Below are positions 6,299 through 59,758 of a DNA stretch of 64,000 bases, one piece after another. The stretch spans positions 2,505-66,504 of the forward strand of contig MFDN01000005.1 in assembly GCA_001776935.1 (NCBI GenBank). Reading direction: 5' to 3'. Each line of letters opens with the position of its first letter. Within the stretch, counting starts at the first letter, position 1. The stretch comes from Candidatus Daviesbacteria bacterium RIFCSPLOWO2_01_FULL_39_23. Lineage in GTDB: Bacteria > Patescibacteriota > Microgenomatia > Daviesbacterales > UBA10151. The position numbers and the translations under genes were made by a program. The notes below the pieces were generated by a model. It ran no database searches. It was given only the letters and a program-made list of their open reading frames with translations, and had not been told where the DNA came from.

Positions 6299-7308
6299 AG
6301 ACCTCCGGCAGGACAATTACAGTTTCTGCCCCGGGAAAAATACACCTGCTTGGCGAACATTCTGTAGTATATGGGAAGCCTGCTTTGCTTACGGCTATAA
6401 ATCTCAGGACCAATGTCATCCTGACGGCAAAACCCGAAGGATCTCTCGCGAATGCAAGCTCCTCAGATGAACTGAGAGATTCTTCTCCGCCCACAGCTAC
6501 GCAGTTGCTGGCGGATCAGAATGACAAAATAAAGGCAATAATTGAACCTATCGTTAAAAAATATCTGAAAATAAAACAAATCCCGCCCTATAAATTGGAA
6601 ATTTCCTCAGAATTTCCTTTAGGAGCAGGGCTTGGCTCTTCTGCTGCCATATCTTCGGCATACATCGGCGCGCTCTTAACTTTTCTTAAAATTAAATGGG
6701 ACTTACACCTTATCAATAAACTTTCCTTTGAGGCTGAAAAAGCTTTTCATGGAAATCCTTCGGGCGCAGATAATGCCGCAGTAGTGTTTGGGGGCTTAAT
6801 CTGGTTTAGAAAAGAAACTACTGATTTAAAAATAATCCAACCGATTAACTCCCCTGTCCCTGCCAATATAGCTGGAAATTTTATACTGATTAACACCGGA
6901 AAACCAAAAGAAACTACCAAAGAAATGGTGGGATTAGTAAAATTAAGAGTCAAGAGTCAAGAGTCAAGAGTCAAGAAAATATTTGATCATCAGGAACAAT
7001 TAGTTAAAGAGCTTTTACTGACCATTCAATGCGGGAATGAAAAGGAATTAATCAAAATTATCAGGGCAGGAGAGAAAAACTTGGAAAAGATGGGTGTAGT
7101 TTCTTGGTATGTTCAATCTATTATCAGAAAAATAGAAAAAGCCGGAGGTGCTGCAAAAGTGTGCGGAGGAGGAGGAAAAACCAAAGCAACAGGTGTACTT
7201 TTGGCTTATCATCCGGAAAAATCAGTACTGGAAAAAATTGCAAAATCATATGATCTACCTTATTATACGGTTGTCTTGGGAGCCGAAGGCCTGCGAAAGG
7301 AAATATAA
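6295..7308 (+). CDS. mvk: Mevalonate kinase (GHMP kinase)
   Basis: N-terminal SAPGKIHLLGEHSVVYG and PLGAGLGSSAA GHMP motifs. Carries an in-frame MITE-like insertion (6414-6526) encoding ...SSPPTATQLLADQND..., and an (agagtca)x4 repeat. Confidence 0.8.
   Translation: MKTSGRTITVSAPGKIHLLGEHSVVYGKPALLTAINLRTNVILTAKPEGSLANASSSDELRDSSPPTATQLLADQNDKIKAIIEPIVKKYLKIKQIPPYKLEISSEFPLGAGLGSSAAISSAYIGALLTFLKIKWDLHLINKLSFEAEKAFHGNPSGADNAAVVFGGLIWFRKETTDLKIIQPINSPVPANIAGNFILINTGKPKETTKEMVGLVKLRVKSQESRVKKIFDHQEQLVKELLLTIQCGNEKELIKIIRAGEKNLEKMGVVSWYVQSIIRKIEKAGGAAKVCGGGGKTKATGVLLAYHPEKSVLEKIAKSYDLPYYTVVLGAEGLRKEI
6414..6526. mobile_element. MITE-like repeat (tgtcatYctga...tcaggatgaca family) inserted in-frame in mvk
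   Basis: Terminal motifs tgtcatcctgacg ... tcagaatgaca. Internal gccagcaactgcgtagctgtgggcggagaag is shared with the copies at 17271-17370 and 17685-17812. Confidence 0.7.
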
Positions 7309-7356
7309 CCACTTGATTGTACGATCGCACACTAAAATGATAAAAATGAAGCTAAA

Positions 7357-8358
7357 ATGAAAAGAGAAATAACAATATCAGCCCCCGGAAAATTAATGTT
7401 ACTTGGTGAACATGCTGTTGTTTATAACAGGCCCTGTATTGTTACAGCAGTCGGACAAAGAATGAGAGCTACAGTTGAGCTAACAGAGAAATCAACTTTC
7501 CAGCTTAATGCCCCGGATGTACAAATTGCAAATTATCAAAAGCCAATGGATCAATTAGGAATTGGCGATCTTCCCAAAGGAGCTAAATTTGTAGAAATTG
7601 CAGTGGTGAATTTCTTAAGGTCACTCCTTGAGTACTCAAGGAGTGACCTTGTAAAACCGGGAGTCAAGGTTTCTACGACCTCAGAATTTTCTTCCCAATT
7701 CGGTTTTGGCTCTTCCTCCGCCTCTACTGTTTGCGTAATTAAAGCCTTATCAGAAATTACAGAAGCAAATCTTAATAACAAAGAGATCTTTGATCTCGCG
7801 TACAAGACAGTGCTTGATATACAGGGCAAAGGTTCGGGATTTGATGCAGCAGCAGCCACCTTTGGAGGCACACTTTATTTTGTAACCGGAGGAAAAACAA
7901 TTGAACCTTTAAACATTGACTCCCTTCCTTTAATAGTTGGTTACAGCGGCATTAAAGCAGATACTGTCACCTTAATAAATCAGGTAAAAGAAAAAGCCGG
8001 GGGAAACCCCCAAGCTGTAGAAGATATTTATGACAATATTGGCAAGCTGGTAGAACAAGCCAAACTCGCTCTTTTGGGTAAAGATTGGCAAAGCTTAGGT
8101 GAGCTTATGAATGAAAACCAAAAACTACTAACCAAACTTGGAGTAAGCATAAACAAGCTTGATGATATGATTGCTGCCGCCCTTAAAGCAGGGGCATATG
8201 GGGCAAAGCTGTCCGGCGCCGGCGGCGGAGACTGTATGATAGCTTTAGCGCCGGAGGATAAGGTGCAAGCCGTCAAAGATGGAATAACCTCTGTCGGCGG
8301 CCAGATAATTGAGGTAGAAACGAATGCAGAAGGAGCTAGAATAGAGACGAGGGACTAG
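7357..8358 (+). CDS. GHMP kinase, probable phosphomevalonate kinase
   Basis: ISAPGKLMLLGEHAVVY and GFGSSSA motifs. Lies between mvk and mvd. Contains a perfect 34-bp palindrome in-frame (7617-7650). Confidence 0.65.
   Translation: MKREITISAPGKLMLLGEHAVVYNRPCIVTAVGQRMRATVELTEKSTFQLNAPDVQIANYQKPMDQLGIGDLPKGAKFVEIAVVNFLRSLLEYSRSDLVKPGVKVSTTSEFSSQFGFGSSSASTVCVIKALSEITEANLNNKEIFDLAYKTVLDIQGKGSGFDAAAATFGGTLYFVTGGKTIEPLNIDSLPLIVGYSGIKADTVTLINQVKEKAGGNPQAVEDIYDNIGKLVEQAKLALLGKDWQSLGELMNENQKLLTKLGVSINKLDDMIAAALKAGAYGAKLSGAGGGDCMIALAPEDKVQAVKDGITSVGGQIIEVETNAEGARIETRD
7617..7650. repeat. Perfect 34-bp palindrome within a coding region
   Basis: aaggtcactccttgagtactcaaggagtgacctt equals its own reverse complement. 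Encodes LRSLLEYSRSDLV in-frame, and the same peptide appears in the antisense ORF. Confidence 0.9.
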
Positions 8359-50799: not shown

Positions 50800-53700
50800 T
50801 TAACTTCTCTTTTTCCCTACAATGCTTTCGAATTCATCCCCTTCCAAAGTCTCTTTCTCAAGTAATGCTTTGGCAACTTTGTCAAGCTTTACTTTATTTT
50901 TCTTTAAAAGATCTTGCGCTTCTTTATAACAGGCATCCATTATCTTTTTTATTTCCGCATCCACCGCATCATGCAGCTTTGGCGACAGACCTTCTCCTTC
51001 TTCCATCCCCCGCCAAACTCCAAACATGGGGCGGGGATTTATACTTAAAGGCCCAAGCGAAGACATGCCGTATTGGGTCACCATCGCCCTGGCAATATTG
51101 GTGGCAACTTCAATATCAGAAGCTGCGCCTGTTGAAATATCACGGAAGACCAATTCTTCCGCTGCTTGTCCGCCCAAAGCCGCAGTTATTTGTTCTAAAA
51201 GACGGGACTTGCTTTCATTTGACCTGTCTTCTGTCGGAGGAAATAAAGTATGCCCCCCGGACATACCTCTTGAGACAATTGAAATTCTGTGTACCGGATC
51301 TACCTTTTTCAGGAAATGTCCCACAATTGCATGACCTGCTTCATGATAAGCCGCCAGCTTCCTGTCATGTTCTGATTGCATTCTTTTCCTTTGCGGCCCT
51401 AATTTTTCTTTGGTGGCTGCTTCCTCCAAATCCTTGCTGTCTATGGCAGTTTTACCCTCTCTGGCAGCCAGAATGGCTGCTTCATTTAACATATTTGCCA
51501 AATCCGCTCCGGAAAACCCAACCGTACGCCGGGCCAGCTTTTCGATTGACACATCTTTGACAAAAGGCTTGCCTTTCATATGAAGTTCAATGATGGCTTT
51601 TCTTTCTTCCAAATCAGGAAGGGACAAAACCACCCGTCTGTCAAAACGTCCCGGCCGAACCAGGGCCGCATCCAAAAGATCAGGCCTGTTAGTCGCTGCC
51701 AGCACGATGACATGATCAGTCTGTGTAAAACCATCCATCTCCACTAAAATTTGATTTAAGGTTTGCTCTCTTTCATCATGACCTCCGGAAATTCCCATTC
51801 CCCGTTGCCTGCCGATTGATTCAATCTCATCTACAAAAATTATGGCCGGGGCTGCTTTTTTTGCCTGGGCAAACATATCCCGCACTCTTGCTGCACCCAC
51901 ACCCACCAGCATTTCCATAAATTCCGAACCGGCTATAGAGAAAAACGGCACTCCTGCTTCTCCTGCCACTGCGCGGGAAAGTAAAGTATTGTGATTAATA
52001 AAACCATTTCCCAAAAAACTATGTGTTTCAGGCACAGTGAAATCATATACATTAGCCTGACCCTCGGTTTTCTTAACTACTCTGGAGAAAAAAAGATTAG
52101 CTTCCAATAAGCTACGCAAATATTCCAAATGCGGAATTTCCACTTCAAGCAAACCGACATACTTCAAATACTCTTTTAGAGTTTCTCTGGTAACCCTACC
52201 TCTTCTTTTTACCTTATCAATAGTTTTTGATAATTTCTCATTACTTAATTTTTTTAAAGAAATAACCTTCCAAGATTCTACTACTATGCTGGCTATCAGA
52301 GGAATCACATCAATGTTTGTATTGACTCTGCCCATTCGTTTTGTATGAGCTTTAAGCAATCTTTGTTTTCTACTAAGACGGAAACCAACTATGTTGCTAA
52401 AGTTAACTAAAGATGAACCAGTCATAGTCAATCTATATACTGGACGATAATATCCATTTTCGGTTGTTCCTTTTACATTAAGACTTGCCACAACCCCTAA
52501 ATTTAAAAGCATCATTTGTACTTGTGTTACGATCTTTTTGCTAACTGTAGTATATTCGAACTCTGCCCGAGCCTTACCAACAGAAGCATCCGTATCAAAA
52601 AGTCCCTGCAGAAACGCTATTTGCACATTTCCCGGAGCTTGTAGAATAGTTGGGGGAATTGTTTTGTCGTATGATAATAAATACGACATACCCAATTGGT
52701 ACAATTGCTTCTTAAAATCCCAATTCGAGACAAGGAAAGACTGACCGTTAGCGCTGGTAGATATCATTCCTTTTGGATAATGAGTTGCAAGATACTTCTT
52801 ATAAAAGTCAATAGTTTCCGGCTCAACATTGGTAAGCCCCACTCTGGAAGCGTGGCTTAAATTACCATCACCCGTGAGAAGACCCATGAGGTATGCTGTT
52901 TCCTCATCTACTAAATCTAGGTCGCCAAAGATTCTTCTTCCGAACTGAATTGCTACATAATCCCCTTCTTGTAAGTGCTCAATCTTGCGGAAACGCAATT
53001 TACCAGTACTATCCATTACTACTACCGGATGTTCCGGTGTTCCTTCCAGAGAAAATCCCTGTGCCAGGCTAACCTTAATAGTTTTCTGCTCTCCTAAATT
53101 GAACCAATGGGAAGCAAAATTCTTGTTGGAAATTACGTCATCTGTACTAAACCCCGGCAACTGTGCCCCATAGACCTGATGAGATTTTGGATCAACATAG
53201 TAGTAACGCGGCACCTCCCGGATTTCCATTAATCCTTTATTAGTCCAAATGATAGTATCCCCGGTCACGCATTTCCCTGTTCCGGCAGGGCCAACCATCA
53301 GCACCCCTTTGGGAATCCTTGCCCCCAATGCCTTAAATTTTTCAGGGGTTTTGAGAAATTCCACAACTTCGGAAAGCTCTCTTTTTGCCTCTTCTGCCCC
53401 TGCCACATCTGTAAATTTGATTTGCGGCTGATCCTTGGTAAAAAGCCTTGCCCGGGATTGAGCAAAAGAAAATATTCCCTGCCCTGCGTCTCTGGCATTC
53501 TTAAACAGAAAAAACATTAGTCCAACCAGAAGCAGTATAGGCAAAACTGCTGACAGGATACCCACCCAAGCCTGCTGTATAGACAAATCTCTCACTTCAA
53601 TAGTAACTGTTTTAGGGTCTACGCCGGATGATTCCAGTATTTTATAGATGGACTCTCCTGCTTCTTTATGAGAAGTGAGCTTTTGGTCGGAATTTTTGAT

Positions 53701-53928
53701 CTCGGCAGTAACTTTATCGCCTTCCAAAGAAATTTTTTGGATTTTTCCATCTTTTACGTCATTTACAATTTGTGAAATAGGCACATCATTTGCAGAAGTC
53801 TGAGGTCCGCCGGAAACCTGATAGAAAAAAATCAACGCTGCTAAAGCAATTAGAATATAGACAAGTAAACCCTTAAACAAACCAAAGAATTTTTTATTTA
53901 TATTAACTTTTCTTTTACCATTTGCCAT
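50800..53928 (-). CDS. ftsH: ATP-dependent zinc metalloprotease FtsH, interrupted by an intein
   Basis: TM region and Walker A split as GPAGTGK | intein | TLLSRAVAGEAGVPFF. Walker B IIFVDEIE, SRH region and HEAGHA zinc motif are present. The extein totals about 614 aa. Confidence 0.9.
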   Translation of the reverse strand: MANGKRKVNINKKFFGLFKGLLVYILIALAALIFFYQVSGGPQTSANDVPISQIVNDVKDGKIQKISLEGDKVTAEIKNSDQKLTSHKEAGESIYKILESSGVDPKTVTIEVRDLSIQQAWVGILSAVLPILLLVGLMFFLFKNARDAGQGIFSFAQSRARLFTKDQPQIKFTDVAGAEEAKRELSEVVEFLKTPEKFKALGARIPKGVLMVGPAGTGKCVTGDTIIWTNKGLMEIREVPRYYYVDPKSHQVYGAQLPGFSTDDVISNKNFASHWFNLGEQKTIKVSLAQGFSLEGTPEHPVVVMDSTGKLRFRKIEHLQEGDYVAIQFGRRIFGDLDLVDEETAYLMGLLTGDGNLSHASRVGLTNVEPETIDFYKKYLATHYPKGMISTSANGQSFLVSNWDFKKQLYQLGMSYLLSYDKTIPPTILQAPGNVQIAFLQGLFDTDASVGKARAEFEYTTVSKKIVTQVQMMLLNLGVVASLNVKGTTENGYYRPVYRLTMTGSSLVNFSNIVGFRLSRKQRLLKAHTKRMGRVNTNIDVIPLIASIVVESWKVISLKKLSNEKLSKTIDKVKRRGRVTRETLKEYLKYVGLLEVEIPHLEYLRSLLEANLFFSRVVKKTEGQANVYDFTVPETHSFLGNGFINHNTLLSRAVAGEAGVPFFSIAGSEFMEMLVGVGAARVRDMFAQAKKAAPAIIFVDEIESIGRQRGMGISGGHDEREQTLNQILVEMDGFTQTDHVIVLAATNRPDLLDAALVRPGRFDRRVVLSLPDLEERKAIIELHMKGKPFVKDVSIEKLARRTVGFSGADLANMLNEAAILAAREGKTAIDSKDLEEAATKEKLGPQRKRMQSEHDRKLAAYHEAGHAIVGHFLKKVDPVHRISIVSRGMSGGHTLFPPTEDRSNESKSRLLEQITAALGGQAAEELVFRDISTGAASDIEVATNIARAMVTQYGMSSLGPLSINPRPMFGVWRGMEEGEGLSPKLHDAVDAEIKKIMDACYKEAQDLLKKNKVKLDKVAKALLEKETLEGDEFESIVGKKRS
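51988..53271 (-). mobile_element. Intein with LAGLIDADG homing endonuclease (in ftsH P-loop)
   Basis: 428 aa. N-terminal Cys (CVTGDTIIW), C-terminal ...GFINHN followed by a +1 Thr. Two LAGLIDADG-like motifs (YLMGLLTGDGN and AFLQGLFDTDASV). Confidence 0.8.
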
Positions 53929-54439: not shown

Positions 54440-54505
54440 CAAACACCAAACGAGCAAGTCTCTGCCGTGCGAGTGGTTTTTTGCGACCAGACAAGCTGCA
54501 CTATT
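54440..54505. other. Conserved intergenic motif (copy 2 of 2)
   Basis: aaacaccaaacgagcaagtctctgccgtgcgagtggttttttgcgaccagacaagctgcact. Related to 11985-12059 and in the same position relative to the flanking genes. Confidence 0.6.
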
Positions 54506-55496
54506 CAAAATAATCCAACTTCATAGCCTTTTTAACTTCATTTAATGTCTTTTGGGCTTCCTCCCTCATCTTTCGGGTGCCTTCTTTTAGAATACTATCC
54601 ACCAGTTCTGGTTTGCCTTCATATTCTGCCCTTTTTTGCCTGATCGGATCCAGGAAATTATTTAAAATCCCAGCCAAGTACTTTTTTACCTCAATATCAC
54701 CCACCTGGCCTTTTGCATATTGATCCTTGTGCTTTGCAACTTGCAACTTATCACTTTCTGTACCAAAGGCATCCAAATAAATAAATACCGGGTTACCCTC
54801 TACTCTTCCCGGATCTGTTGCATGTATTCTATTTGGATCTGTATACATACTCATGACCTTTTTCTCCACTTCCTCCTGCGAATCTGTTAAAAAAATGGCA
54901 TTGCCGGAAGACTTCCCCATCTTGGCCTGCCCGTCTATGCCGGGCAAAGTCGGCACTTCCCCTATTAAAGGCTCCGGTATTGGAAAAACCTGGCCAAATA
55001 AATTATTAAATTTAATGGCAATATCGCGGGCAAATTCAACGTGTGATTTTTGATCCTTGCCAACCGGTACCAGGTTTGCTCTTGGGGATAAAATATCTGC
55101 AGCCATCAGGATCGGATAATAGAATAAACCTACTGTATCCTGAGCCCCTGAGTCCAGCTTGTCTTTCAAAGCAGGCTGTCTGGCAATTAAGGGGCGCGAA
55201 GTCAAAACGCTTAAATAATAGGCAATTTCTGTAATTTCAGAAATCTTAGACTGCAGGAAAAAAGTCACTTTTTTAGGATCAAGGCCAACTGATAAATAAC
55301 CCAGCATCAATCCCCGGATATTTTTCTCCAAATCTTCGGTCTTATCAAAATGGGTAGTTAAAGCATGCAAATCTGCAATAAACACAAATGTGTCATATTC
55401 ATCCTGTAATTTAACCCTGTTTTTTAAGGAACCAATATAGTTTCCCAAATGAAAACTGTCAGAAGTTGGCCTGTCCCCAGTTAAGATTCGTTTCAT
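54501..55496 (-). CDS. trpS: Tryptophanyl-tRNA synthetase
   Basis: TGDRPTSDSFHLGNY (HIGH-like) and KMGKS (KMSKS) motifs. The 331 aa length is typical of TrpS. Confidence 0.85.
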   Translation of the reverse strand: MKRILTGDRPTSDSFHLGNYIGSLKNRVKLQDEYDTFVFIADLHALTTHFDKTEDLEKNIRGLMLGYLSVGLDPKKVTFFLQSKISEITEIAYYLSVLTSRPLIARQPALKDKLDSGAQDTVGLFYYPILMAADILSPRANLVPVGKDQKSHVEFARDIAIKFNNLFGQVFPIPEPLIGEVPTLPGIDGQAKMGKSSGNAIFLTDSQEEVEKKVMSMYTDPNRIHATDPGRVEGNPVFIYLDAFGTESDKLQVAKHKDQYAKGQVGDIEVKKYLAGILNNFLDPIRQKRAEYEGKPELVDSILKEGTRKMREEAQKTLNEVKKAMKLDYFE

Positions 55497-55519: not shown

Positions 55520-55780
55520 TTAATAAGTGGTAGTTCTTCGAAAATCAATGTCCTCCACTGAGACTTGATGTGAATTTGTATCTAATTGGTAGATGACTCT
55601 GATTTCACTTATCCTTAATCTGTAGCTTCTTTGAGTGCCTGCTAATTTTTTAATATCCAAACCGGCTTGAAACGGATCGCTTTCTAATTTTCTTAAGCCT
55701 TTTAAAACCCTTTCCTGTAACTTTTGTGGTAATTTCGCAAAATGTTTCTCTGCCCTGGGGCGGATGATTAAATTGTACAT
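55520..55780 (-). CDS. RelE/ParE family toxin
   Basis: 86 aa. C-terminal YRLRISEIRVIYQLD pattern. Confidence 0.65.
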   Translation of the reverse strand: MYNLIIRPRAEKHFAKLPQKLQERVLKGLRKLESDPFQAGLDIKKLAGTQRSYRLRISEIRVIYQLDTNSHQVSVEDIDFRRTTTY

Positions 55781-56056
55781 TTAGACGCTGAGGCGATATT
55801 TTTTCGCCAATTGCTCCAAGGCTATTCCACCTTTTTGGGGATTTTCTTCCAATTCTTTACCTTTTAAGCTGTCAAAATAATCTTCCAGCATTTCCATCAT
55901 ATTGGAATATTCTTCAATAGAAAGCATCACGGCTTTAGGCTTGCTGTGATGAAAAATGAAAGTGGGGCCGGATTTTTTTGTATCCTCCAAAAGCTCTATT
56001 GCTTTTTCCCTAAGGTCTGTAATGGTTTTGGTATTTTTAGCAGTCGGTATGATCAT
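55781..56056 (-). CDS. Phd/YefM family antitoxin
   Basis: 91 aa. N-terminal ITDLREKAIELLEDTKKSGPTFIFHHSKPKAVMLSIEEY. Directly abuts the toxin gene. Confidence 0.7.
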   Translation of the reverse strand: MIIPTAKNTKTITDLREKAIELLEDTKKSGPTFIFHHSKPKAVMLSIEEYSNMMEMLEDYFDSLKGKELEENPQKGGIALEQLAKKYRLSV

Positions 56057-56091
56057 AGTAAGATTTTTCTAAGATTATTCTAATCTTTTTC

Positions 56092-56295
56092 TTAGGATTT
56101 GTCAACACCCGGTAAGTTCGGAAAAAATAACATTTCAGGTTCAGGATCCTGTAATGCTCTCTGAATAACTTCCTTGCCCCCGGGAAAAGTCTTAATAACA
56201 GCCTCTATATCACCTGATGTAATAGAAGAACCATCTCCGCTTAAAAGCTCTCTTCTAATATTCTTAATATCCTTTTCTACCATTATTTTTGCCAC
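56092..56295 (-). CDS. Hypothetical protein (67 aa)
   Basis: Tightly packed in a minus-strand operon. No recognisable family. Confidence 0.3.
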   Translation of the reverse strand: MAKIMVEKDIKNIRRELLSGDGSSITSGDIEAVIKTFPGGKEVIQRALQDPEPEMLFFPNLPGVDKS

Positions 56296-56335
56296 AGAAA
56301 AGACACCTCAAAGGGTATCAAAAATGGAACAAAAA

Positions 56336-56530
56336 TCAGCTTATCACGCTAATAGGCACCATCAATCCATTTTTACCTCTTGGTATTATAGTCCTAATCA
56401 TTGCTGTACCTGTAGTTGCATCTACTGAACCAAGCCAACCCACAACACCTCTTCCGTCTGGAAAGTTCACCTCAACAATCCCTTTATCAGAAACAGGCGT
56501 CACTATTACATTTCGTTCAATGTTAGCCAT
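56336..56530 (-). CDS. Hypothetical protein (64 aa)
   Basis: Gly-rich small ORF. Operon context only. Overlapping plus-strand ORFs are judged less likely. Confidence 0.25.
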   Translation of the reverse strand: MANIERNVIVTPVSDKGIVEVNFPDGRGVVGWLGSVDATTGTAMIRTIIPRGKNGLMVPISVIS

Positions 56531-56552
56531 TTTTTAAAAAATCCACCTCCCT

Positions 56553-58094
56553 TCAGATTCCTAATCCATACATGAAAATAGGATTATTCTCTATTGCTAA
56601 ACTCTCTTCTTGAGTTGATTCATCATCTTTATAAGGAGAAGGAAATATTCTTTTTTCTAAACCTAATAAAAGAGCATGCTTATAAGAACTGGCTTTCACG
56701 GATTCTGCAATATTAATACCAAAAGTTTCCGCATCCCAAAACCCGTCTGCTACAGCTACTACTTGCTCAAGTTTATAAAAAGCATGCCCTCTCCCGTCAT
56801 GTCTACCCAAAACCGGATCAAATTTGCCTACTTCGTACTCTGTAGAGATATAATCTGCCAGTGTCAGTGCCCGCATCTCAATAGGCCTTTTTAAGCCTTT
56901 AATAGATATTTTCCTGCCCCTTTGAGGAAACCTGTCAGGCTTACCGTTGCCATTAGTCGGATCAACTTGATCATCTGGTTCAACCTTGTAGCGCTCGCTC
57001 CGCTCGCGCATAACCCGGTCAAACTCGGCAGTAACTTCATCCCTTAAACGTTTTCCTTCTTCCGGATCATTACCTGTATACATAACGACCAGCCTAAAAC
57101 GGTCTTTATCTTCACCGTAAGGCGTAGTTTCTATACGGCTGTCAGGGTGAAATCCGTTTGCTTTTCTTGATCTTTGCATTCCTTTTATAACTCTGGCTCC
57201 GAATTCTTTCCTATCTTGATCATATAAAACTTTTACTGTCTCTACCACGTTCCCTTCCTTGTCTTTAATTCCTACCACTCTTACCGGATATTCAATGTAT
57301 TTTACCCATAATCCTTCTGCAAAGTCTGTATCCAGGTATTGACTACTTAAACCAACCAATTCATTTGTTCTTGGTTTATGATAGGAATATATCGGCATAT
57401 CTATAGGATCGCCTTCTTTCCCTATAAAGAAATTCTTTTCCAAATAGTCATTCATGTCCTCAAGGGCTCCGGTAACCGCCTCGTCGTTATCTACATCTTC
57501 TTTCATCTCGTCTGCACACAATAATCCGACTGCCAATCTTCTGTATTGCTCTGATCTTAATCTGTTACCTATTTTATTCGCCGGTTTAGTTAATCTTTCT
57601 AATATCGAAGAGGGCGTTCTTCTATCCCAATAAGAGTTACCCGTTAATGCCGCTTTTCTATCCTGATCTGCAAAAAGTATTCCGCGTGCAACCCCCACTG
57701 TCTCATCGGCCATCAGCATAACCTGTTTCCAGAATCTTCTTCTCCCCCGCTCTTCGATTCCGTATTCATTTCCCACCTTCTCGTAAATTTCCTGATTTAC
57801 CCGCCTTTTTGCCTCCCGACGTGTTTCTCCTCTTTCGTGACCATCTTTATCAATATACACGAACTCCCCGGTTTTATTTGCCCTTCTAAATTCTTCGTAA
57901 TTCTCCCAGCCAAAAAAATCTCTAATCTCTCCCACCACACCTCTTATACCCATTCCCTTGGCTGTCATTTTGGCAAAATTTACCTCCCATTTTCGTCTTT
58001 CAGGCACTATTTCTCCACCCAATGTTTCACTAGGAAACGGCGCAATGTCTGCTATTGATACTTCTGATATCTCTGATGCTTCAATGTTAATCAT
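56553..58094 (-). CDS. Hypothetical protein (513 aa, highly charged)
   Basis: Long ORF without recognisable motifs. Preceded by a structured leader and terminator. Confidence 0.5.
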   Translation of the reverse strand: MINIEASEISEVSIADIAPFPSETLGGEIVPERRKWEVNFAKMTAKGMGIRGVVGEIRDFFGWENYEEFRRANKTGEFVYIDKDGHERGETRREAKRRVNQEIYEKVGNEYGIEERGRRRFWKQVMLMADETVGVARGILFADQDRKAALTGNSYWDRRTPSSILERLTKPANKIGNRLRSEQYRRLAVGLLCADEMKEDVDNDEAVTGALEDMNDYLEKNFFIGKEGDPIDMPIYSYHKPRTNELVGLSSQYLDTDFAEGLWVKYIEYPVRVVGIKDKEGNVVETVKVLYDQDRKEFGARVIKGMQRSRKANGFHPDSRIETTPYGEDKDRFRLVVMYTGNDPEEGKRLRDEVTAEFDRVMRERSERYKVEPDDQVDPTNGNGKPDRFPQRGRKISIKGLKRPIEMRALTLADYISTEYEVGKFDPVLGRHDGRGHAFYKLEQVVAVADGFWDAETFGINIAESVKASSYKHALLLGLEKRIFPSPYKDDESTQEESLAIENNPIFMYGLGI

Positions 58095-58096
58095 AT

Positions 58097-58140
58097 CTTC
58101 CTTTCCTACAAAAAAAACCGCGCCCGTTTTTGGGTGCGGT
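58097..58140 (-). terminator. Intrinsic terminator or attenuator 15 nt upstream of the orf513 start
   Basis: The minus strand reads accgcacccaaaaacgggcgcgg followed by a T8 run. Confidence 0.5.
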
Positions 58141-58280
58141 TTGTGCAGGATTTATTCCCTTTGTCCGGGATTATCTCCTCCACCACCGCTCCCCCACATG
58201 AGGGGACGATAGCAAATAATAAGTTTTGATACAAATAAGCTCTTCATAAATTAAAAATCCCGGAAAGGGATATTACCTAA

Positions 58281-58310
58281 ATTGTAAACACCCTTTAAGA
58301 TTCTTGTCAA
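58281..58310 (-). promoter_or_regulatory. Sigma70-like promoter (TTGACA-N18-TACAAT) for the leader upstream of orf513
   Basis: The minus strand reads ttgacaagaatcttaaagggtgtttacaat. Confidence 0.35.
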
Positions 58311-58369
58311 GCAGTATTCTACTATGGGGTACAGAAAAAATCAAGCCTGGTTCAAAAATTCTTCCGGGG

Positions 58370-59656
58370 TCAATGCTTCAGCTTGTCCCTGAATTGATCG
58401 TAGGTTGTAGCAGCAGATTCATAATCCTGTTCCTGATATGATTCTTCTTTAATGGTAATCTTTCTTTTTTCCTTTAAGTCTTTTCTTAAAACTACTCCTG
58501 GACCAATAAGCGAATTACCGCCTACCCTGACACCGGGCATAGTCGAAGCATTTACACCCACCCTTACTCCCTGGCCTGCAATCAAACCCAATTTTTCTCT
58601 TTCGCTGTCTAATTTCTCTTCTCCCACCTTAATCGTCTGGTTATCTAATCTTAGATTTGCCAAAACTGCACCTGACCCTGCCCCAAAATCTCCTTCTAAG
58701 ACTGAGTCACCAATATAATTGGTATGAAACCAGGAATTGGCGCCAATATAGGATCTGGTAATGTCAGAAGAAAAACCGGTGACGCAGCCTTCCTCTAAAT
58801 TTGATTCCCTAATCATAGAGTTATTTCCCACAATGCAGTTTTTACCGATATGGCAGGGGCCTTTAATGCAAGCTCCCTCAAACACCTTCACCCCTTCCTC
58901 AATTACCACATTTCCCTCTATAATGGCCTTTTCAGACAATTTTGCAGCCGGGGAAATTTGTTGCTCAAGCTTGGATAAAAAATAAGCTGTAATATCCAAA
59001 ATATGCCAGGGGTATTTAAGCGGAATCCAGACTCCCTCATACCTGGCAAGTCTTATGTTTATTCCATCGGAAATCATTTGGCTTAAAGCCACCTCATAAA
59101 TATCATCCCTTTCAGATTTTGCTTTTTCCAGATATCCGATCAGCTTTTGGCCATCCTTAAAATAATCTGCTACTAATTTAACCATATCTGACGGTTCGTT
59201 GCCTTCCCCCGGCTTCTCAACTATTCCCTTTACGCTTTCTCCTTCTACCTTTATGTACCCTCCGGGGAAGTATTTATCAACTTTTATCCCTGTTAGCATT
59301 ACATCACCCTCATAATTATTTTGAAATACGCTTGCATCCAAAATATCTTCTGCATTAACGATTAATATTTCCCCTGCTATTAAATGTTTGGCAGATAAAA
59401 TTGCATCAGCCATGCCGCTGGGCTCATTTTGTATAACAATTTTATAATCCAATTTTAGTTCTTCTGCTACTTTTTCAACTCCGTCTTTAGTTTGCGGGCT
59501 CGCCACAATTATGAATTCCACACCTGGAAGGCGAGCATTGATTTTTTTTAAATTATGATACAAGAGCGACTTTCCCAAAAAAGGAATCAGACACTTATCC
59601 GTATTAATCGGCCACATCCTTTTGCCTTCACCGCCAGCCAGTACGATTATTTTCAT
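58370..59656 (-). CDS. Sugar-phosphate nucleotidyltransferase with C-terminal left-handed beta-helix domain
   Basis: MKIIVLAGGEGKRMWP NTP-transferase motif. Hexapeptide repeats in the C-terminal third. 428 aa. Confidence 0.75.
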   Translation of the reverse strand: MKIIVLAGGEGKRMWPINTDKCLIPFLGKSLLYHNLKKINARLPGVEFIIVASPQTKDGVEKVAEELKLDYKIVIQNEPSGMADAILSAKHLIAGEILIVNAEDILDASVFQNNYEGDVMLTGIKVDKYFPGGYIKVEGESVKGIVEKPGEGNEPSDMVKLVADYFKDGQKLIGYLEKAKSERDDIYEVALSQMISDGINIRLARYEGVWIPLKYPWHILDITAYFLSKLEQQISPAAKLSEKAIIEGNVVIEEGVKVFEGACIKGPCHIGKNCIVGNNSMIRESNLEEGCVTGFSSDITRSYIGANSWFHTNYIGDSVLEGDFGAGSGAVLANLRLDNQTIKVGEEKLDSEREKLGLIAGQGVRVGVNASTMPGVRVGGNSLIGPGVVLRKDLKEKRKITIKEESYQEQDYESAATTYDQFRDKLKH

Positions 59657-59685
59657 ATAAATTTATATTACTACAAACTAATTAG

Positions 59686-59758
59686 TAGCAGCGATTGGAA
59701 TCGGACCAATGACCTATCGCTTATGAAACGATTGCTCTGCCATTGAGCTACGCTGCCA
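59686..59758 (-). tRNA. tRNA with CAU anticodon (elongator Met or Ile2-type)
   Basis: The minus strand reads GGCAGCG TA GCTC AATGGCA GAGC A ATCGT TTCATAA GCGAT AGGTC ATTGG TCCGATT CCAAT CGCTGCT A. Cloverleaf with U33 and A37. The T-loop is atypical (C at position 55) and 1-72 is a G-U pair. No encoded CCA. Confidence 0.5.

Follow-up and report, generated by a model that had tools for sequence, protein, structure and literature searches.

The window analysed here is a stretch of 64,000 nucleotides (nt) from Candidatus Daviesbacteria bacterium RIFCSPLOWO2_01_FULL_39_23 (assembly GCA_001776935.1, contig MFDN01000005.1, positions 2,505 to 66,504 of the forward strand). Our subject is a structured RNA leader within it and the gene that this leader precedes, orf513. 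All window features described below lie on the minus strand, where the genes are arranged in the order NTP-transferase, leader, orf513, orf64, orf67, Phd, RelE, trpS, tRNA-binding protein and FtsH. The open reading frame (ORF) orf513 occupies 56553-58094 and encodes an N-terminal helical region followed by a C-terminal domain at about residues 225-490. We use orfX for orf513 together with its homologues in related loci, which are numbered L001 to L021. An earlier note on this DNA, made from the letters alone, had listed a promoter, a leader with hairpins, a terminator and the downstream ORFs, and every one of these is present at the coordinates given below. It had also left orf513, orf64 and orf67 without a family; we likewise found no significant match for any of the three in Pfam, PHROGs, NCBIfam or PADLOC.

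The window leader folds far better than shuffled sequence (z = -4.4, with none of 200 shuffles as good; a second folding z-score was -4.3). It ends in an intrinsic terminator (58110-58140) composed of ACCGCACCC (58140-58132), a loop, GGGCGCGGU (58125-58117) and a run of eight U (58117-58110). RNAfold gives this GC-rich hairpin nine pairs and -14 kcal/mol. It contains one A.C mismatch and was therefore missed by the pattern scanner. The end of the terminator lies 15 nt from the ATG of orf513 (58094), and the corresponding distance in the homologues is 12-20 nt. Between terminator and ATG sits the Shine-Dalgarno (SD) sequence of orf513, AAAGGAAG (58097-58104). A similar GGAAAGGA/AAAGGAG element precedes most orfX homologues, with none clear in L005, L012 and L017. 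Because no promoter fits between the terminator and the ATG, orf513 could be expressed only via read-through, and the leader with its terminator is the sole transcription route to the gene.

Upstream of the terminator the leader forms two further structures. The P1 hairpin (58182-58213) is the anti-antiterminator, and its 3' arm includes a segment that we call region 2 (GCGGU, 58189-58185). The P2/P3 stem-loop (58143-58184) consists of P2, GUG.AGGA/UCCU.CAC, and P3, UCCC/GGGA, with an A-rich loop. In the alternative fold, an antiterminator spanning 58136-58189, region 2 pairs with region 3 (ACCGC, 58140-58136), which is the start of the terminator 5' arm, and this pairing prolongs P2.

The full long architecture recurs in 12 distinct leaders, which we call class A (the window, L001, L005, L006, L012-L015, L017, L018, L020 and L021); L016 is a variant. 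Their elements come in a fixed order: one or two promoters, a 5'-proximal hairpin (H0) with a U run, an AU-rich stretch that opens with an AUG, P1, P2 around P3, the terminator, usually an SD, and the start codon. Class B loci (L003/L008, L009 and L011) have the short 5' end only, that is, a promoter, a 5' hairpin with a U run, and an SD. L010 retains H0 and the terminator 3' arm alone, a state that, judged from its sequence, looks like a deletion of the attenuator core. When each leader was folded independently, P1, P2/P3 and the terminator were obtained. When the terminator 3' arm was omitted, which mimics the state during transcription, the antiterminator was the minimum-energy fold in 11 of the 12 leaders, so the alternative pairing that the earlier note had named as the thing to look for is there. 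Region 2, at the end of the P1 3' arm, has the consensus G[C/U]GGU[U], and region 3 has the consensus [A/G][A/G]CCG[C/U]. Their pairing stacks on P2 to give a single helix of 11-13 bp, such as GCGGUUUUAGUCU/AGACUAAGACCGC in L017. At full length, the terminator form beats the antiterminator fold by 1-12 kcal/mol (about 4-10 in most leaders). The terminator form is thus thermodynamically favoured, and the choice between the two must therefore be kinetic.

A covariance model built from the leaders recovered all 12 class A members at E-values of 1e-14 to 1e-36, and elsewhere in the 153 kb searched it found nothing below 1e-4 except reverse-strand self-matches. Across the 12 leaders, 96% of the terminator cells are paired, with one compensatory change from C-G to U-A. 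In the covariance-model alignment as a whole, 70.7% of cells are paired, compared with 40-49% when the partners are slid. This alignment is too rigid for helices of variable length, and MAFFT with RNAalifold recovered the terminator only. Hence we used an alignment-free covariation test in which the pairing energy of each leader's own arms was compared with that of arms swapped between leaders. Own arms paired better in all three helices: -11.3 versus -7.6 kcal/mol for P1 (none of 20000 permutations as good), -8.25 versus -5.14 kcal/mol for P2 (p = 0.0004) and -7.57 versus -5.17 kcal/mol for P3 (none of 5000 permutations as good). The pairing between region 2 and region 1, the P1 5' arm (58205-58213 in the window), shows a compensatory change of its own: some leaders have CGC:GCG and others CAC:GUG. 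In this small sample of 12 leaders no unpaired nucleotide is strongly conserved, and the A-rich loops and junctions differ in both sequence and length.

Searches of Rfam did not assign the leader to a known class. At gathering thresholds only a tRNA matched. With permissive settings (E up to 10 for the window leader and up to 5 in nine homologous loci) there was no T-box, amino-acid leader or riboswitch, and no match recurred across the nine loci. The best leader matches reached 14-18 bits against cut-offs of 40-80 and came from the terminator alone, with a weak resemblance to Leu and Phe leaders.

The main promoter, TTGACA-N18-TACAAT (58281-58310), agrees with the consensus at 11 of 12 positions. 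Taken alone it is not above chance, as 12 such sites were found and 13.3 are expected in 5 kb of AT-rich DNA. It is credible because it is conserved in relatives, with TTGACA and a -10 element at the equivalent position in nine homologous loci, and not because of the single-site match. From its position, transcription would start near 58275. A sigma70-like promoter upstream of it, TTGATT-N17-TAGAAT (58316-58344), is the first of the two tandem promoters, and a block CCC(C/T)ATAGTAGAAT at this upstream promoter is kept in L001, L018, L006, L020 and L010. The tandem promoters, about 35 nt apart and including the block CCC(C/T)ATAGTAGAAT, are much better conserved in the window and these five loci than the downstream coding sequence. 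The first element of the transcript would be H0 (58247-58271), in which the hairpin AUCCC-UUUCC-GGGAU (58271-58257) is followed by a U/A-rich run and which appeared terminator-like in our scan. H0 is present in every class A leader and in L010; the class B loci have a comparable hairpin with a U run and nothing more. It may serve to stabilise the 5' end of the transcript. The H0 of the window (AUCCCUUUCCGGGAU, 58257-58271) is approximately the reverse complement of the P3 region (AUCCCGGACAAAGGGAAU, 58156-58170), and RNAfold of the whole window leader gives long-range pairing between the two. In L001 and L006 the two match only in part, as judged by eye, and the complementarity may be coincidental.

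The leader also contains an ORF. In the window it has 31 codons (MKSLFVSKLIICYRPLMWGSGGGGDNPGQRE, 58152-58247), spans P1 and has its stop codon inside the antiterminator. All ten complete leaders have an AUG within a few nucleotides of the end of the H0 U run, and it opens an ORF of 20-31 codons. An ORF that long arose in just 3-10% of dinucleotide shuffles, for the eight leaders with a valid test (the L017 segment was mis-cut and was left out). The stop codon of every one of these ten ORFs is located between regions 2 and 3, 7-36 nt past the former and 14-42 nt ahead of the latter. In shuffles that keep the AUG in place, a stop in this interval arises by chance in 13-37% of cases for a given leader, which amounts to about 3e-5 over about seven lineages. 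Indels of 3 nt leave the frame intact; relative to region 2, the leaders use two different frames. The best-conserved residues of the peptide, (R/H)-S-x-F, coincide with RNA region 1 (CGCUCC/CACUCC).

On balance we lean towards the view that this leader is a ribosome-mediated transcription attenuator standing ahead of a single gene, and not the control region of a five-gene toxin-antitoxin (TA) operon. The earlier note had likened it to a riboswitch or an attenuator. The second half of that suggestion is borne out by the conserved and covarying antiterminator pairing; as for the first, the lack of any Rfam match means that it is not a known riboswitch. The leader has no conserved unpaired nucleotides, which argues against a metabolite aptamer, and it does have a conserved ORF, so an attenuator fits it better than a metabolite riboswitch.

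In the mechanism that we propose, transcription would start at the strong conserved promoter or promoters and produce H0 first, then the leader ORF through P1. If region 1 paired with region 2 (GCGGU(U)), the terminator would form and transcription would stop 15 nt before orf513. If region 1 were occupied, region 2 would be free to pair with region 3 ((A)ACCGC, in the terminator 5' arm), P2 would be prolonged, and RNA polymerase would read into orf513 and, in most related genomes, continue into trpS. We infer that the leader ORF is translated and that the ribosome is the sensor. A ribosome stalled early in the leader ORF would cover region 1 and favour the antiterminator, giving read-through. 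The stop codon is located within the antiterminator in every case, and a ribosome that reached it would melt the antiterminator helix and lead to termination. By analogy with the stalling-controlled leaders discussed below, the most likely cue would be a general impairment of translation, by starvation or an inhibitor, rather than the shortage of one amino acid.

Several observations weigh against this reading. The leader AUG lacks an SD in every locus and is preceded by sequence that is simply A/U-rich; the main genes mostly have strong SDs. A hand count in the pairs L001/L018 and L013/L015 showed no clear three-base periodicity of substitutions in the leader ORF. Since the conserved peptide residues overlap region 1, conservation of the peptide is inseparable from conservation of the RNA. 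The attenuator core is absent from the class B loci and from L010. The 12 or so leaders come from perhaps six to seven lineages, and the statistics are correspondingly modest. The leader peptides have no regulatory codon run, and no amino acid is enriched in their control zone. A Trp codon is present in eight of the ten complete leader peptides, but its position is variable. In L001, L005, L018 and the 5'-truncated L021 it falls within region 2, and a ribosome stalled on it would block antiterminator formation instead of favouring it.

In L013, L015 and L017 the Trp codon is placed 26-31 nt upstream of region 2, a spacing that is compatible with Trp attenuation; judged by eye, the 5'-truncated L014 would fit as well. 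In the window the codon is in the P1 loop, and L006 and L016 have none. Attenuation by Trp codons as the general mechanism, an idea prompted by the trpS and TrpR-related neighbours, was rejected: the position of the UGG is inconsistent, it is missing in two leaders, and there is no enrichment.

The genes downstream of orf513 bear on what the leader controls. In the window trpS, for tryptophan--tRNA ligase (54501-55496; TIGR00233, 304.8 bits), is a conserved downstream neighbour of orfX. In nine loci trpS follows orfX in the same orientation, separated from it by as little as 13 nt (L021) or as much as 2.3 kb. The upstream neighbour of orfX is an NTP-transferase gene or citrate-synthase/ACL-like genes. 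In L013, L018, L020 and L021 trpS comes directly after orfX with nothing between, and elsewhere the interval holds different genes: an unrelated 99-aa ORF in L001, an unrelated 120-aa ORF in L005, and, directly downstream of orfX in L003 (2477-2731), L006 (9949-10203), L009 and L011, a gene for an 84-aa YerC/YecD TrpR-related protein (TIGR02531 above cut-off, PF01371 at 2.5e-20). This gene precedes trpS in L006 and L011, where the sequence reaches trpS. In L020 the tryptophanyl-tRNA synthetase (TrpRS; 6415-7761) is fused to a tRNA_bind domain, which in the window and L001 is encoded by a separate downstream gene. An unannotated 451-aa ORF upstream of orfX in L020 was considered as a paralogue and discarded, as the two sequences, compared by eye, are unrelated.

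In the window the interval between orf513 and trpS contains four ORFs: orf64 (56336-56530), an orphan, orf67 (56092-56295), which has no family, a Phd/YefM-family antitoxin gene (55781-56056; PF02604, 40.5 bits, 2.3e-10) and a RelE/ParE-family toxin gene (55520-55780; PF05016, 23.2 bits against a cut-off of 23 bits). The gaps from orf513 through orf64, orf67 and Phd to RelE are 22, 40, 35 and 0 nt, and the GC content is even throughout the region. Neither orf64, orf67 nor the TA pair has a counterpart in any of the other 14 loci, and the sole protein-database match of orf64 was its own 98%-identical copy. The terminator scan placed a weak terminator-like hairpin in the gap between orf64 and orf67 (56302-56319). 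The TA pair has a promoter of its own, TTGACA-N17-TAGAAT (56105-56077), overlapped at its -10 element by a perfect palindrome, AAGATTA-N3-TAATCTT (56071-56087), so that the whole element spans 56071-56105; from its sequence the palindrome is probably the TA operator. Antitoxin first, genes abutting and a palindrome over the promoter make this an ordinary type II pair of the Phd/YefM-RelE/ParE kind, arranged as in autoregulated TA operons.

From these comparisons of gene order, the conserved unit is the leader with orfX, usually followed by trpS, and orf64, orf67 and the Phd/RelE pair appear as strain-specific cargo between orf513 and trpS. The earlier note had joined all five genes into one TA-associated or phage-derived operon. 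That proposal did not hold: the cargo is found in the window only, the TA pair has its own promoter, and orf513 occupies a syntenic slot upstream of trpS. What the neighbourhood does conserve is the leader, orfX and the link to trpS. We also discarded an origin in phage (the best PHROG matches had E-values of 0.05-0.2, with 0.22 for orf513, and a tblastn comparison of orf513 and orf67 with 50,697 phage records was empty), a defence system (PADLOC was empty), and a toxSAS TA module in orfX, where the adjacent downstream gene is different or absent from locus to locus. The gene orf513 belongs to an unannotated chromosomal family that is neither phage-derived nor tied to the TA pair.

That family is larger than a first search indicated. 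A word-index search of 5.8 billion proteins returned seven relatives of orf513, and a repeat with a 23-sequence alignment returned the same seven. With an exhaustive profile search the number rose to 245 cluster representatives, of which 33 had E-values below 1e-30. The relatives come from groundwater metagenomes, and one locus is from a Candidatus Microgenomates metagenome-assembled genome (JACOYE010000007). The family has no Pfam domain and no name from any source, and a scan of 96 members against Pfam was empty. The earlier note had said that its proposal would be overturned by a match of orf513 to a common housekeeping family, or by a leader without conservation or alternative pairing in homologous loci. 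Neither was the case: orf513 falls into no housekeeping family, and the leader is conserved in homologous loci together with its alternative pairing. Pairwise identity of orfX is 34-53%, compared with 34-90% for TrpRS of the same genome pairs (r = 0.33; window, L001, L005, L006, L011, L013, L018, L020 and L021). The window and L005, for instance, share 90% identity in TrpRS but only 42% in orfX. Thus orfX evolves several times faster than the neighbouring genes, and comparison of the sequences suggests diversifying selection or allele exchange.

AlphaFold gave a usable model of full-length orf513 (predicted local distance difference test, pLDDT, 74.9) and a good one of residues 225-490 (pLDDT 88.1, predicted template modelling score 0.86). 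In three Foldseek searches, RelA/SpoT-family (RSH) proteins were at or near the top, with OAS-type nucleotidyltransferases interleaved and OAS/TUTase proteins after them. The RSH matches included Rel (6s2u), RelP (6fgk; E 0.027, probability 0.89), RelSeq (1vj7; probability 0.97), SpoT, FaRel2, phage Tas1 and a phage RelA/SpoT protein. These matches are weak: every E-value was at least 0.02, with none below 1e-3, and TM-scores were 0.2-0.36. Only K296, K304, D329 and E406 are invariant in the 96 family members, and R294 is conserved. With hhalign against four RSH synthetases, R294-x-K296...K304 fell on RxKxxxSxxxK, D329xxGFR on DxxGxR and E406 on the E of EIQIRT, with weak scores of 24.3 and 19.0 compared with 10-15 for nine shuffled or reversed controls (P about 0.01-0.06). 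The Q-I-R-T of EIQIRT is not conserved in orfX, which has EMRALT in the window and EVxVQxL as the consensus of close relatives. In the AlphaFold models the order of secondary-structure elements agrees with that of the RSH synthetase domain. A pattern of one invariant Asp and one invariant Glu fits RSH chemistry more closely than it does the DxD triad found in pol-beta enzymes.

Set beside the RSH synthetases (RelQ/RelP, Rel/SpoT, FaRel2 and Tas1), orfX may be alike in its top structural matches and in the placement of motif residues, both with weak scores, and in secondary-structure order. It differs in having long extra beta hairpins in the domain and about 190 helical, unassigned N-terminal residues without an HD motif. 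PF04607 (RelA/SpoT) matched neither orf513 nor any of the 96 family members at E-values up to 1, and sequence searches of the PDB with family profiles returned spurious helical matches only. Judging from the models, we think that the C-terminal domain of orf513 (about 225-490) probably has an RSH-like fold; by the Pfam criterion it is not a member of that family.

The structural evidence in the leader would serve equally well if a trans-acting factor, and not a ribosome, picked the fold. Such protein- or tRNA-mediated antitermination could use orfX itself, TrpRS, the YerC/YecD TrpR-related protein or uncharged tRNA, and the leader ORF, which lacks an SD, would then be incidental. The operon includes trpS, with the TrpR-related gene directly downstream of orfX in L003, L006, L009 and L011, and aminoacyl-tRNA synthetase genes are classical targets of T-box or autoregulatory leader control. 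However, neither a T-box nor any other Rfam leader matched, our reading of the sequence revealed no specifier-loop-like element and no UGGN bulge, and there is no conserved single-stranded motif to act as a binding site. The TrpR-related gene is missing from most attenuator loci, and maintenance of the ORF and of its stop position would be left unexplained. We regard this explanation as unlikely, though by no means negligible. Repeats of (G/U)AG like those bound by TRAP were looked for and rejected, about three GAG/UAG triplets being all that could be read in the sequence. A decidedly more improbable account is that P1, P2 and P3 form the aptamer of a new riboswitch class, with a ligand (a nucleotide that the RelA/SpoT-like enzyme makes or uses, or tryptophan, would be candidates) that stabilises P1 and turns the terminator on. 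Three compact covarying helices, an expression platform with competing terminator and antiterminator, and absence from Rfam are what such a class would present. Against it, the junction J3/2 and the P3 loop have nothing in common beyond being rich in A, with variable sequence and length; the helices vary in length and register, as those of aptamers seldom do; invariance is confined to the stretches that the alternative pairing requires; and the overlapping conserved ORF with its stop in the antiterminator goes unexplained.

It is very improbable that the promoter-to-terminator transcript of about 165 nt constitutes an independent gene, as a small RNA or as the mRNA of a 31-residue micro-protein, with orf513 expressed by unregulated leaky read-through. 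It does have its own strong promoter, its own strong terminator and a conserved ORF, and terminated attenuator transcripts act in trans in other bacteria, as described for peTrpL/rnTrpL (PMC7298713). But orf513, which has a strong SD yet lacks a promoter, depends fully on bypass of the terminator, and a conserved covarying antiterminator would serve no purpose in a stand-alone small RNA. The peptide sequence is poorly conserved. In the class B loci, moreover, the equivalent promoter and 5' hairpin lead straight into orfX. The picture in which a single structured leader heads all five genes as one accessory module, TA-associated or phage-derived, is largely refuted by the comparative data, and we give it hardly any credence. 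The tight same-strand spacing fits it, as do the fast divergence of orfX and the variable cargo slot, which recall accessory-gene hot spots, and the toxic RelA/SpoT-type proteins FaRel2 and Tas1 among the structural matches of orfX, at non-significant scores. It is contradicted by the absence of orf64, orf67, Phd and RelE from the other 14 loci, by the promoter and operator of the TA pair, by the terminator-like hairpin after orf64, by the four loci without a small partner gene between orfX and trpS, and by the trpS-adjacent position that orfX keeps in genomes whose TrpRS are 34-90% identical. There was also no PADLOC, significant PHROG or phage-genome match, and the GC content is uniform.

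A ribosome-mediated attenuator, the reading that we prefer, has well-studied counterparts. The leaders of E. coli trpL, pheL and pheM-pheST and of S. coelicolor trpRS1 share with ours the four segments with pairings 1:2, 2:3 and 3:4, and a terminator directly before the gene. Shared with trpL/pheL-type attenuators are also a short leader ORF that covers segment 1 and ends before segment 3, and an aminoacyl-tRNA synthetase gene, which most relatives have in the unit. Our leader differs from these in having neither a regulatory codon run nor an SD for the leader ORF, and in its single Trp codon, which most but not all leaders have and whose position is inconsistent. The long antiterminator helix has an additional stem-loop, P2/P3, enclosed within it, and the leader matches no Rfam leader family. 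Control of a tryptophanyl-tRNA synthetase gene in this way is on record for Streptomyces coelicolor trpRS1, which is under ribosome-mediated attenuation according to Vecchione & Sello 2010, as cited in PMC4787780.

Leaders whose read-through is triggered by stalling of a ribosome on the leader ORF include those of B. subtilis bmrCD (PMC4191407), mef/mel (PMC4335068) and erm (PMC8274638). Like ours, these have leader peptides without amino-acid runs, and they may be the closest functional analogy for a general translation-impairment cue. They differ from our case: orf513 is no known resistance determinant, and we recognised no arrest motif in our leader peptides. The T-box (RF00230) resembles our leader in placing a competing terminator and antiterminator upstream of a unit with trpS. 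Our leader is much shorter than a T-box and overlaps an ORF, and it has no Stem I, specifier loop, T-box sequence or UGGN bulge.

Two further features of the window lie outside this unit. A tRNA-Met (CAT) gene (59685-59757) stands directly upstream of the NTP-transferase gene. The FtsH gene (50800-53928) encodes 1042 aa, compared with 614-618 aa in L001 and L020, and contains an intein with a LAGLIDADG endonuclease directly after the Walker A motif (Intein_splicing 1.6e-13, LAGLIDADG_3 1.1e-18).

To our knowledge, almost nothing is known about gene regulation in the Patescibacteria or Candidate Phyla Radiation (CPR), bacteria that cannot be grown alone. A conserved and covarying terminator/antiterminator leader with an ORF, not represented in Rfam, would be a concrete and testable example of attenuation in the CPR, where the phenomenon is essentially undescribed. 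The operon picture is corrected as well, with the TA pair and the two orphan ORFs recast as local insertions. The gene under control belongs to a fast-evolving, unannotated family of at least 245 sequence clusters, located beside trpS, that from structural models has a probable RelA/SpoT-like nucleotidyltransferase core. A bolder scenario, speculative and quite unlikely in our estimate, is that orfX is a highly divergent RelA/SpoT-type pyrophosphokinase of the CPR, either an alarmone synthetase or a modifier of tRNA 3' ends, that is transcribed only when ribosomes stall on the leader peptide. It would then be part of a stringent-response-like or conflict circuit with its sensor in an RNA attenuator, and its divergence and variable cargo would come from an arms race. 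If orfX does make alarmones or modify tRNA, the system would bear on how translational stress is sensed in reduced genomes.

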